From Candidatus Sigynarchaeum calidifontis (GTDB lineage: Archaea > Asgardarchaeota > Lokiarchaeia > Sigyniarchaeales > Sigyniarchaeaceae): DNA of 34,843 nt. Position 1 is the first letter of the stretch. Every line of letters begins with the position of its first letter. The notes below the pieces were generated by a model. That model made no database searches, was not told the origin of the DNA, and saw nothing but the letters and a program-made list of their open reading frames with translations. This document shows, piece after piece, positions 3,366-12,352 of this stretch. Both the position numbers and the translations under genes were made by a program. Where the stretch lies: positions 1 to 34,843 of the forward strand of contig JAUQYZ020000113.1 in assembly GCA_030587475.2 (NCBI GenBank), read 5' to 3'.

Positions 3366-4043
3366 TTGAGCGAGCAGAACACGATAAGTAAAACCGCAGT
3401 CATCAAGGAAAACGTGAAGCTTGGCAAGGGTATCATCGTCCAGGACTTCGTGATAATCGGAAAACGTCCTGAACGTGCGAAGATCTCGCTGTACGCGCAA
3501 ACACCTCGCGAATTCAAGCCAACCGTGATCGGTGATTACGTGACCTTATGCGCTGGGGCGATAGTGTATGCTGCCGTCGAACTCGGTAACAACGTTTTCC
3601 TGGGTGATTATGCCAGCATCCGGGAAAACACGACCGTTGGCGAGAGCACGATCATCGGCCGCAACGTCACGGTCGAGAACAATACGAAGATCGGAAGAGC
3701 TTGCAAGATCCAAACAGGCGCTCATATCACCGCCGAATGCGTCGTCGGTGACAAGGTCTTCATCGGTCCCGAGGTTTGCACGACGAATGACTCCTACATG
3801 GCCCTCGTCGACGTGCCCATGCAAGGGCCAGTGTTCTGTGATGGCTGCGCGATCGGGGCAAACAGTACCATCGTCCCGGGCATCCGGATCGGAAAGAATG
3901 CCGTGATTGGATCTGGATCCGTCGTGTTCCAAAACGTACCCGACGAGGAGTTCTGGATGGGCAACCCGGCCAAAAAGGTAGGGACGTTCAAGCAATTCAT
4001 CGGCACGGCGAGGATGTTCGCCGAGAAAAAAAAATCGCATTAA
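3366..4043 (+). CDS. Hexapeptide-repeat (left-handed beta-helix) acyltransferase, NDP-amino-sugar N-acyltransferase-like
   Basis: Repeated [LIV]GxxxxI hexapeptides, IGPEVCTTND, IGANSTIVPGIRIGKNAVIGSGSVV and GNPAK. TTG start. Confidence 0.9.
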   Translation: MSEQNTISKTAVIKENVKLGKGIIVQDFVIIGKRPERAKISLYAQTPREFKPTVIGDYVTLCAGAIVYAAVELGNNVFLGDYASIRENTTVGESTIIGRNVTVENNTKIGRACKIQTGAHITAECVVGDKVFIGPEVCTTNDSYMALVDVPMQGPVFCDGCAIGANSTIVPGIRIGKNAVIGSGSVVFQNVPDEEFWMGNPAKKVGTFKQFIGTARMFAEKKKSH

Positions 4044-4074
4044 ATCGAAGTATCAACATGGTGAATACTTGCAC

Positions 4075-4314
4075 ATGAGCCAAGCTTCGACATTCAAGTC
4101 CATTATCTGCGAGATATTTGGCATCCAGGAAAGCGACATCGTCGATTCGAAAACGCCCGAGGATCTCGAATCCTGGACATCGGTCACGCACATGCAAATG
4201 GTCGCGAAATTCGAGGAAAACTTCAAGTTTCAATTTGATGTCGAGGAGATAACCGAAATGGATTCCATCGCCAACATCAAAAAAGTTCTCCGGAAACATG
4301 GCGTGGATCTCTGA
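4075..4314 (+). CDS. Acyl carrier protein
   Basis: 79 aa and acidic. ESWTSVTHMQMVAKFEENF matches the WDS(L)xH ACP helix-II pattern, with Ser at 4180-4182. Cluster context supports it. ATG at 4075. Confidence 0.85.
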   Translation: MSQASTFKSIICEIFGIQESDIVDSKTPEDLESWTSVTHMQMVAKFEENFKFQFDVEEITEMDSIANIKKVLRKHGVDL

Positions 4315-4421
4315 GCAACCGTCTTTTAGTATCACAATCCCTTTTATAAGCGTTTTTTTTTCTCTTGGAGTATGAACCATTTCACGGATGCTCGAAAAAA
4401 GCCAGGTGGCGGAGAACGTCG

Positions 4422-10185: not shown

Positions 10186-10217
10186 ATTAATTATCTTTAA
10201 GCATTGCCTTGTTAAAG
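10186..10217. promoter_or_regulatory. Back-to-back TATA-like elements between the divergent PPTase and DUF354 genes
   Basis: AT-rich, with ctttaa (10195-10200) and ttaaag (10212-10217) in inverted orientation. Confidence 0.35.
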
Positions 10218-10237
10218 GTACATGAAAGAACTACCTA

Positions 10238-11383
10238 GTGAACGACATGGCCATAGCCGGAAAGCGGATCTGGGTCGATCTCGAGCACCAGAAAGGCGGG
10301 ATCATGCTCCATTCCATGTTCAAGCGACTGGAAAAAGACGGAGCCAAGTTGCTGTACACGGCTCGAGATTTCGGTAATAACCGGCAAGTGCTCGACGAAC
10401 TTGGTATCCCGTACAAGCTCATCGGCAAGCACGGGGGGGCGACATTGTACGGGAAGCTCGAGGCACACATCGAGCGGCTCCGCGCTTTGCTGCCCATCGT
10501 CCACGAGTTCAATCCTGACCATTCCGTTTCGTTCGGTTCCGTGGAACACATTCGCATCGCCTTCGGCCTTGGCATCAAGTCCATTTTTTTCAATGACGAG
10601 CCTCGCAGCGCGGCGGTCGCCCGCCTCACGCACGCGCTCGCTGGGCACATCATCACCCCCATGTGCATTCCTATCGAAGAATACTACAAGCTCGGTGCAT
10701 CCAAGGCGCAGCTAATTCGCTATAACGGGATTGACGAGATCGCGTGGATCGCGGAGTATCGTCCCGATCCCAAGGTGCTCGACACGATGGATGTCGAGAA
10801 GGGCCAGTATGTCTTGATGCGGACGGAGATGACCCACACGGAATACCTTCGCGGGTTGATGCGGCCGGAAGAGACCCGTATTTCGGAATTCCTTCCACCC
10901 ATCGTGAAGGCGTTCCCCAACCACAAGTTCTTCCTGCTCGTCAGGCTGCCTGAGCAAGAAGCGTATTTGAAAAAGAAACTGGAGCGTGTCGGCGGTAAGA
11001 ACATCATCGTGACCAGATTCATCCCCCGGATCCAGGATTTCATGTTCTACAGCGCGCTCGTTGCCAGTGGTGGTGGGACCATCGTTCGCGAATCGAGCCT
11101 CATGGGCATCCCGTCCATCGAGTTTTTCCCGGGGGAAACCGCGTGGCAAGAGCACTTCTTGATAGACAACGGATTTCCATTGAGCCATATCAAAGACCCG
11201 GCGGCTATAGCTGACAAGGCGATGGAAATCTTGTCGGGGCATCAAGATCCGACCAGGTTTACCGAGGGGTTCAAGGAGAAATTGAAAGGCTATGAAAATC
11301 CCGCGGAAATTTGCTACGATCAAATCGTGCGCGAGTTGGGAACCGAAAAATCAAGATCAGACCCGTGCAGTGACATCCCATAA
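10238..11383 (+). CDS. DUF354 family protein (GT-B-like, archaeal glycosylation-associated)
   Basis: IWVD, TARD, IGKHGG..LYGKL, YNGIDEIAW, SGGGTIVRESSLMGIPSI. Start is GTG 10238 or ATG 10247. Confidence 0.82.
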   Translation: MNDMAIAGKRIWVDLEHQKGGIMLHSMFKRLEKDGAKLLYTARDFGNNRQVLDELGIPYKLIGKHGGATLYGKLEAHIERLRALLPIVHEFNPDHSVSFGSVEHIRIAFGLGIKSIFFNDEPRSAAVARLTHALAGHIITPMCIPIEEYYKLGASKAQLIRYNGIDEIAWIAEYRPDPKVLDTMDVEKGQYVLMRTEMTHTEYLRGLMRPEETRISEFLPPIVKAFPNHKFFLLVRLPEQEAYLKKKLERVGGKNIIVTRFIPRIQDFMFYSALVASGGGTIVRESSLMGIPSIEFFPGETAWQEHFLIDNGFPLSHIKDPAAIADKAMEILSGHQDPTRFTEGFKEKLKGYENPAEICYDQIVRELGTEKSRSDPCSDIP

Positions 11384-12352
11384 TTTCTTGTTTTCTTTTA
11401 CCCATTCGATCTCCCGGCGTAAACCTTCCTCGGGCATTATCTTGGGTTCCCAACCAAGTCGCTTTCTTGCCAGCGTGCTGTCTAATACGAAGTCATTTAG
11501 TTCCTGGACGAGCCTGGGCCGGCCGGGCTGGTGCACGCTGCTCTGGCCCGGGGCGGGGTTATCGTGTATCGGCTTGATCGCCGGGTCGATGATCGAGCAG
11601 ACCAGGTTAGCGATCCGTGCCGCGTTCAACGGTTCCGGGCCACCGATGTTCAAGGCCATCCCGTTCACGTCATCGTTGAGTGTCGCCAACATATTCGCCT
11701 CGACGACGTCGTCGATGTAGACGTAATCCCTGAGGAGTTTACCCTCGCCGAAGATGACGGGCGGCTTGCCATCGAGGACGCGCTTGATGAACAAGGTCAT
11801 GACCCGCCCGTACCATTCACCCGGCCCGTAGACCTCGCTGTACCGCAAGGAAACGGTTGGCAAGCCGTGCAATCGCGTGTAGAGCTGGCAATACATCTCG
11901 CCCGCGTATTTCGTGATGCCATATGGCCAGGCAGGGTTTTTCGGGTGCTTCTCGTCCTGGGGCAAGTATTCCGATGGGCCGTACATGCCGCACGACGAGG
12001 CATAGATGACCTTTTTAACCCCCGCTTTCAGTGCGGCGTTCAACACGTTGATGGTTCCGATCACGTTCACCTCGAGTTCGGCGATCTTGTCCTCGATGCC
12101 CTTGAACATGTCAAGCACGGCGGCCTGGTGGGAGACGATGTCGGCACTTGCCACCGCGTCGTCGACCGTTTTCGCGTCCTTGATGTCCCCCTCGATGACG
12201 CGAGCGCCCTTGACAATAGCCGGATTTGGCGAGGAGAAGTTATCGAGCACGACGACCCGTGCCCCTTCAGCGATGTAACGCCGGGCCACGTGGGCGCCGA
12301 TGAATCCACAGCCCCCGGTGACGAGTATCGTTTTGCCCTTGATGTCCGTCAT
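11357..12352 (-). CDS. NAD-dependent NDP-sugar epimerase/dehydratase (extended SDR)
   Basis: TGGCGFIG, HQAA, YASS, YGITK (YxxxK) and RDYVYIDDVV. 27-nt tail-to-tail overlap with DUF354. Confidence 0.95.
   Translation of the reverse strand: MTDIKGKTILVTGGCGFIGAHVARRYIAEGARVVVLDNFSSPNPAIVKGARVIEGDIKDAKTVDDAVASADIVSHQAAVLDMFKGIEDKIAELEVNVIGTINVLNAALKAGVKKVIYASSCGMYGPSEYLPQDEKHPKNPAWPYGITKYAGEMYCQLYTRLHGLPTVSLRYSEVYGPGEWYGRVMTLFIKRVLDGKPPVIFGEGKLLRDYVYIDDVVEANMLATLNDDVNGMALNIGGPEPLNAARIANLVCSIIDPAIKPIHDNPAPGQSSVHQPGRPRLVQELNDFVLDSTLARKRLGWEPKIMPEEGLRREIEWVKENKKLWDVTARV

Follow-up and report, generated by a model that had tools for sequence, protein, structure and literature searches.

Comparison with described systems

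In Vibrio cholerae, tetronate synthesis is the assigned role of VC0248–VC0252 (wbeK-O, also rfbK-O), and phage-resistant mutants of the O1 pathway that have been recovered include mutants in wbeM and wbeN. In wbeK-O order, WbeK is the acyl carrier protein (ACP) and WbeO the transferase. A similar cluster of nine genes lies at positions 3366–12352 of a contig of the Asgard archaeon Candidatus Sigynarchaeum calidifontis (JAUQYZ020000113.1), analysed here over its whole length of 34,843 nucleotides (the window). Compared by gene content, it holds the full wbeK-O set in the same order of ACP, ligase, alcohol dehydrogenase (ADH) and LuxE/LuxC and, like the Vibrio module, includes an acyltransferase and sugar-nucleotide genes. 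No V. cholerae protein was named among the matches listed for proteins of the cluster. In contrast to wbeK-O, LuxE and LuxC are separate, the transferase lies upstream and is of the C3-amino type (the Vibrio system acylates the C4-amine of perosamine), there is no lipopolysaccharide, and the cluster adds its own phosphopantetheinyl transferase (PPTase), a 2-epimerase-like DUF354 protein and a 4-epimerase. Together, the six co-oriented genes and the PPTase would make up a cassette that provides acyl groups for the decoration of glycans. We consider it likely that this cassette performs ACP-dependent hydroxyacylation of an amino sugar for surface glycans. Transfer of a hydroxyacyl group from ACP to a nucleotide-activated amino sugar had been put forward in an earlier note made from the sequence, and is supported by the genes that surround the cassette in archaea and in the majority of non-clostridial bacteria, by partner transferases of the C3-amino and LpxD types, and by the predicted fold of DUF354.

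A core of ACP, AMP-ligase, LuxE and LuxC is likewise found in the flagellin glycosylation islands of Aeromonas group II and of enterobacteria (PMC7874193, PMC4875605), although these use a FabG-like short-chain dehydrogenase/reductase (SDR) instead of an iron-type ADH and pseudaminic acid as the acceptor, and a liposugar was proposed by the authors. On the acceptor side, the Wbp/Wlb (WbpB-E-D-I) and GnnA/GnnB-LpxA/LpxD systems offer a parallel in which UDP-GlcNAc derivatives are oxidised and aminated at C3, N-acylated by an LbH enzyme and epimerised at C2 (PMC4031482, PMC7663294). Unlike in those systems, the acyl donor is here proposed to come from a dedicated reductive cassette. The donor is acetyl-CoA for WbpD and WlbB, and fatty acyl-ACP from type II fatty acid synthesis for LpxA and LpxD. 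The scheme proposed here would thus follow the Wbp pathway but with an ACP-borne donor, like the GnnA/GnnB-Lpx systems. The cassette type is already known from V. cholerae wbeK-O and the Aeromonas islands, and no biochemical proof of it was found. Literature searches, outside which most subscription journals fell, returned nothing linking Asgard archaea, ACP and LuxC, and nothing relevant on dihydroxybutyryl groups.

Donor-side enzymes

All nine open reading frames (ORFs) of the cluster are present and uninterrupted, with Pfam matches to Hexapep, PP-binding, AMP-binding, Fe-ADH, LuxE, LuxC, DUF354 and Epimerase at E values from 7e-5 (ACP) to 3e-75. The shared orientation of the first six and, from the ACP through to LuxC, the intactness of the catalytic motifs, both noted earlier, are borne out. 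The ACP (4075–4314, plus strand, 79 aa; PP-binding) carries its phosphopantetheine serine at Ser36, which is invariant in an alignment of 11 orthologs, and is the only ACP of its type found in a search of the genome. The adenylate-forming ligase that probably loads it (4422–5933, plus strand, 503 aa, ANL family; AMP-binding, 3e-75) retains a P-loop at 158 and the adenylation lysine Lys485, and in profile searches its best matches are acyl-CoA ligases, with weaker matches to amino-acid adenylation domains. The iron-type ADH (5930–7024, plus strand) retains its metal ligands D193/H197/H262/H277 and belongs to a mostly Asgard clade that is set off by a gap in E values (<1e-60 versus >1e-27). The LuxE-like acyl-protein synthetase (7003–8121, plus strand, 372 aa; LuxE, 7e-54) has a Cys361 that is invariant among orthologs, and Cys260 of the LuxC-like acyl-thioester reductase (8118–9401, plus strand, 427 aa; LuxC, 3e-75) lines up with the cysteine motif seen in LuxC of Photobacterium (7xc6).

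The PPTase (9408–10181, minus strand) is a divergent Sfp/AcpS-like protein for which the earlier assignment holds in part. No Pfam match exceeds the cut-off (ACPS E = 0.0016, Sfp E = 0.34), but the Mg-binding Asp/Glu motif and the KEA motif are invariant in nine cluster-linked orthologs, some of which match ACPS.

Based on these families, the PPTase would prime the ACP at Ser36 and the ligase would adenylate a small C4 diacid at one of its carboxyls and load it onto the carrier, with malate the most likely substrate and succinate or fumarate as the other candidates. By analogy with the Lux system, LuxE would then adenylate the free distal carboxyl and pass the acyl group via Cys361 to Cys260 of LuxC, which would reduce it to the aldehyde with NAD(P)H. 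The ADH may convert the aldehyde to the alcohol, yielding (di)hydroxybutyryl-ACP. Gene fusions occur among relatives, including an ADH-LuxE fusion of 734 aa in two Promethearchaeales genomes (L001:718–2922; L004:8897–11101), ligase-LuxE fusions and LuxE-LuxC fusions of 800–827 aa, suggesting that these enzymes are tied into one pathway.

The same LuxE and LuxC families, together with profile matches of the ligase to long-chain enzymes, would also suit a Lux-type fatty acid reductase that, together with the ADH, provides lipid synthesis with long-chain fatty aldehydes or alcohols, and the corresponding loci of Promethearchaeum syntrophicum MK-D1 and Ca. Lokiarchaeum ossiferum B35 (Loki-B35), which belong to the same order (Promethearchaeales) as the present host, adjoin mevalonate-pathway genes. 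However, these mevalonate genes adjoin a block that lacks the cassette as well, and the neighbours of the cluster are sugar enzymes. The catalytic cysteines are conserved as in LuxCDE, but LuxE and LuxC score far below the equivalog cut-offs (61 of 550 and 110 of 750 bits), neither LuxD, luciferase (luxAB) nor a ketosynthase is among the domains matched in the cluster, and the genome search recovered a single ACP of this type. A role in lipid synthesis is therefore very improbable.

The last four of the co-oriented genes had been described as joined by 4-nt overlaps. True ATGA overlaps join ligase to ADH (5930–5933) and LuxE to LuxC (8118–8121). A GTGA overlap between ADH and LuxE is also present in the sequence, but public gene calls place the LuxE start at a TTG at 7003, a start that we adopt because orthologs are 372–373 aa long and align from this codon. 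The ADH/LuxE overlap is accordingly probably 22 nt, as in MK-D1 and Loki-B35, rather than 4 nt. The nine genes do not form one operon, since DUF354 is encoded on the plus strand between two minus-strand genes, those for the PPTase and the epimerase.

Transferase and acceptor sugar

The hexapeptide (LbH) N-acyltransferase (3366–4043, plus strand) is of the QdtC/WlbB (C3-amino sugar) type and has a basic C-terminal extension. Its best matches in the PDB are QdtC (5e-24), WxcM (7e-20) and WlbB (1e-16), with perosamine acetyltransferase reaching only 1e-9; it has no Rossmann domain and is closest to C3-amino-sugar enzymes. No perosamine genes were found in the window locus. The acceptor is therefore probably a 3-amino (2,3-diamino) sugar and not perosamine. 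Homology of the transferase points to acylation of the C3-amine of a nucleotide-activated 3-amino sugar, for which use of ACP as the donor would be a further assumption, and the acceptor is probably UDP-GlcNAc3N, supplied by an oxidase/DegT pair that is encoded away from the cluster. A C3-type DegT aminotransferase was found elsewhere in the genome, on contig C213, with QdtB and WbpE as its best matches. As a candidate oxidase/aminotransferase pair, the Gfo/Idh/MocA and DegT proteins at 2.15 Mb in MK-D1 were considered and set aside, as they are not clearly WlbA/GnnA-like.

DUF354 (10247–11383, plus strand; 4e-39) is predicted to fold like the non-hydrolysing UDP-sugar 2-epimerases (WecB/WbpI), a fold shared by glycosyltransferases. 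With its AlphaFold model (pLDDT 87.7), the top Foldseek matches are UDP-GlcNAc and UDP-2,3-diacetamido-glucuronate 2-epimerases (TM 0.6–0.7, 13–17% identity), with glycosyltransferases built on this fold scoring as well; a sequence-profile search against the PDB gave no match. The extended SDR (11357–12352, minus strand; Epimerase, 4e-59) resembles UDP-sugar 4-epimerases, with UDP-glucose 4-epimerases and WbgU as its best PDB matches. DUF354 (at C2) and the SDR (at C4) may set the stereochemistry before the sugar joins the surface glycan.

Host and distribution

The Asgard origin suspected from the sequence is confirmed by placement of the genome in the taxonomic order of MK-D1 and Loki-B35, by an ADH that is 91% identical to a protein of Ca. 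Sigynarchaeum springense, and by a LuxE tree in which the window protein falls within a supported clade of ten Asgard members. Contamination or chimerism was rejected: gene order and flanks are identical in three NCBI assemblies and in a congener, and the composition of the cluster matches that of the genome (GC 0.545; tetranucleotide distance at the 16th percentile).

The cassette is not peculiar to this genome, as other Asgard genomes, Methanohalophilus and many bacteria carry one. A survey of 400 Asgard genomes found close LuxC orthologs in 13, in two cases as fragments, a patchy distribution of the kind expected for a glycan-modification locus. In Methanohalophilus profundi, a glycan locus (L171:9365–17777) encodes AcpS, ACP, a ligase-LuxE fusion, LuxC, DUF354 and an SDR; the hexapeptide gene of this locus is interrupted. 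The core of ACP, ligase, LuxE and LuxC is also frequent in Clostridium, Planctomycetota and Acidobacteriota, and sugar genes lie nearby in 16 of the 26 non-clostridial bacterial loci. Homologs away from glycan loci, which by the earlier note would speak against its glycan reading, do occur in clostridia and count against it in part. The terminal reductase is an iron-type ADH in Asgard archaea and often an SDR in bacteria.

Three fragmentary or distant occurrences were also noted. What a genome of the same family retains (L119:5600–9210) is the PPTase, a portion of DUF354 and the final 81 codons of LuxC, which reflects either erosion of the cassette or a gap in the assembly. Distant second LuxC-like genes are present in the window genome on contigs C221 (21973–22920) and C178, and in another genome (G005, locus L124) a distant LuxC-like gene has two LuxE-like neighbours and probably belongs to a different system.

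ACPs are uncommon in archaea, and the hydroxyacylation reading would give an archaeal ACP/PPTase pair a concrete role in glycan acylation instead of fatty-acid synthesis.

Coupling of cassette and transferase

The cassettes of MK-D1 and Loki-B35 are surrounded by genes for GT4 (AglH-like), LbH, DUF354, MaoC and DegT proteins. A GT4-LbH-DUF354(-DegT) block without the cassette is kept in five relatives (G011, G004, G007, G025 and G029), and neither ACP nor LuxC was found in the cassette-less relatives searched, which include one closed genome and two that are only 74–79% complete. Between MK-D1 and Loki-B35, which belong to different genera and both carry the cassette, LbH is 91% and DUF354 86% identical. 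Between MK-D1 and cassette-less genomes of its own genus, these values fall to 46–47% and 64–65%, respectively, versus 84–86% for GT4 and 89% for DegT. Since the identities of LbH and DUF354 follow the cassette while those of GT4 and DegT follow the genus, LbH and DUF354 appear to have moved with the cassette. In Promethearchaeaceae (L169, L160; G021, G004), the GT4-LbH-DUF354-DegT block adjoins mevalonate and prenyl-synthase genes, which puts synthesis of the lipid carrier beside the first glycosylation step. An RNA run of MK-D1 yielded assembled contigs that span the whole cassette region at flat depth and are therefore uninformative about expression.

The cassette-linked transferases differ from their stand-alone relatives. 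All five cassette-linked QdtC-like LbH copies examined have a Lys/Arg-rich C-terminal tail of about 20 aa and an altered CoA-site motif, both of which are missing from the six closest cassette-less orthologs. Elsewhere, the cassette is paired with an LpxD-family transferase exceeding the NCBIfam cut-off in Thorarchaeia and on a groundwater contig (L006:12451–13428; L121:7480–8457; L226:2145–3104), and with a GNAT protein in one Promethearchaeales locus. A predicted complex of the LbH trimer with ACP scored 0.59, versus 0.35 for the best control, with at least 91% of contacts shared between runs and a partner pLDDT of at least 89. In the benchmark, 7 of 80 solved complexes reached the mark at scores of 0.60 or below, as did both mismatched pairs that passed (2 of 110), and the score may be biased by solved LpxD-ACP complexes; the prediction lends weak support to binding of ACP by the LbH trimer.

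Acyl group and glycan masses

The closest bacterial LuxE (51–59%) and ligase (48–53%) proteins come from a clostridial ACP-ligase-LuxE-LuxC block beside abfD/abfT, for which no published description was found. Unlike the window cluster, this block has neither ADH nor LbH and stands in a context of 4-hydroxybutyrate/succinate metabolism. The 4-hydroxybutyryl-CoA dehydratase AbfD is encoded in 37 of 46 Bacillota cassette loci together with a related CoA-transferase; one locus has a succinate CoA-transferase. Because of this dehydratase, the LuxE/LuxC subfamily probably reduces one end of a C4 diacid, and the Bacillota block possibly converts succinate to 4-hydroxybutyrate by an ACP-bound pathway not described so far. 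Next to the Bacillota blocks (L007:8246–19845; L017:8154–20044; L050:4569–10420) there are also CoA-transferases and a sigma-54 regulator, and in one locus a crotonase and a 3-hydroxybutyryl-CoA dehydrogenase.

The frequency of AbfD raises an alternative for the archaeal genes, namely that ACP, ligase, ADH, LuxE and LuxC form a metabolic succinate-to-4-hydroxybutyrate route leading to AbfD and that LbH, DUF354 and the epimerase are an independent sugar module that uses acetyl-CoA and merely hosted the insertion. The window genome does encode an AbfD (64% identity, contig C212), and LbH orthologs occur without the cassette. However, AbfD is near none of the eight Asgard cassettes, the LbH and DUF354 alleles changed along with the cassette, and the acyltransferase partner varies by lineage (QdtC-like, LpxD-like or GNAT), so that such a metabolic role seems unlikely. 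For the hydroxyacylation of an amino sugar, the window locus, which has no MaoC, GT4 or DegT, is compatible with either 2,4-dihydroxybutyryl (from malate) or 4-hydroxybutyryl (from succinate) as the group transferred. For cassettes that include MaoC, the predicted group is 3,4-dihydroxybutyryl.

Glycan masses from other organisms fit a dihydroxybutyryl group. Aeromonas strains that carry the SDR version of the cassette were reported to have a 376.14-Da pseudaminic acid derivative and a 102-Da unknown (PMC7874193). By calculation, pseudaminic acid with a dihydroxybutyryl group (376.148) and dihydroxybutyryl alone (102.032) match both. In MK-D1, the linking sugar of the N-glycan has a mass of 304.127 Da and was tentatively named HexNAc-Thr by the authors (PMC11284389). 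C12H20N2O7 is the sole CHNO formula within 3 mDa of this value in the range scanned, and also fits, by calculation, an N-acetyl, N-dihydroxybutyryl-diaminohexose, an isomer match in an organism other than that of the window. The HexNAc ions cited for the threonine reading can derive from a 311.08 unit equal to HexNAc+108.00. Two further masses reported for the MK-D1 glycans (PMC11284389) can be given formulas: the unassigned 311.08 unit fits HexNAc + C2H5O3P (311.077), and a 303.10 unit fits C12H17NO8 (HexNAc-succinyl or HexNAcA-hydroxybutyryl, 303.095).

The product of the MK-D1 locus is plausibly this 304.127-Da linking sugar. More broadly, and tentatively, Asgard archaea might exchange the acyl group on the first, Asn-linked sugar of their N-glycans through gain or loss of the cassette together with an ACP-reading LbH, the MK-D1 sugar being an N-acetyl, N-dihydroxybutyryl-2,3-diaminohexose. 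If so, HexNAc-Thr would be a wrong assignment for the MK-D1 sugar, and relatives that lack the cassette, a natural negative control, would carry the di-N-acetyl form (244.106 Da), a shift of 60.021 Da. Carrier-protein chemistry would then serve protein glycosylation in archaea and provide an accessible model for the tetronate pathway of V. cholerae. The linking sugar of this first cultured Asgard archaeon is open to reassignment from deposited data (PXD051006).

The same logic of loading and reduction would apply to aspartate, giving homoseryl-ACP, an isomer of the threonyl form, and its ester with HexNAc would also have a mass of 304.127. HexNAc + C4H7NO2 is identical in formula, and HexNAc fragments were reported from MK-D1 glycans without free HexNAc (PMC11284389), but such ions can come from the 311.08 unit itself, the LbH matches N-acyltransferases of 3-amino sugars, and the ligase is closest to acyl-CoA ligases rather than amino-acid adenylation domains. 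Loading of aspartate is, on these grounds, quite improbable.

Several observations weigh against an N-glycan sugar acylated by way of the cassette. The clostridial cassettes lack a sugar context, and close LbH orthologs occur without any ACP. Monophyly of the cassette-linked LbH enzymes was not recovered (approximately unbiased test, p = 0.086), and the basic tail may therefore be convergent or unrelated. On the acceptor side, no clear GnnA/WlbA oxidase was identified in searches that included MK-D1, and the DegT adjoining the MK-D1 cassette is not clearly of the C3 type. The 304.127 formula is shared by several isomers, among them the authors' HexNAc-Thr. Finally, the window locus lacks GT4, DegT and MaoC genes, its GT4 being on another contig (37%), and consequently only for MK-D1 and Loki-B35 does gene context connect the cassette with the linking sugar of the N-glycan.

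The stand-alone, six-protein version of the cassette suits in vitro tests of LuxE/LuxC reduction on an ACP, a reaction that bears on the V. cholerae O1 tetronate, the 376- and 102-Da unknowns of Aeromonas and the clostridial abfD-linked block.

Neighbouring features of the window

Upstream of the epimerase gene lies a conserved ORF of 68 aa (12389–12595, minus strand) that is 40% identical to a syntenic ORF in another locus (L227) and has no Pfam match or assigned family. An Rfam search of the window gave no match. Further along lie a multi-pass membrane protein of 969 aa (12701–15610; 79% in the congener), a 739-aa protein that has no Pfam match (17645–19864) and, also outside the cluster, a 1549-aa NosD/beta-helix protein with a zinc ribbon at its C-terminus (24151–28800).

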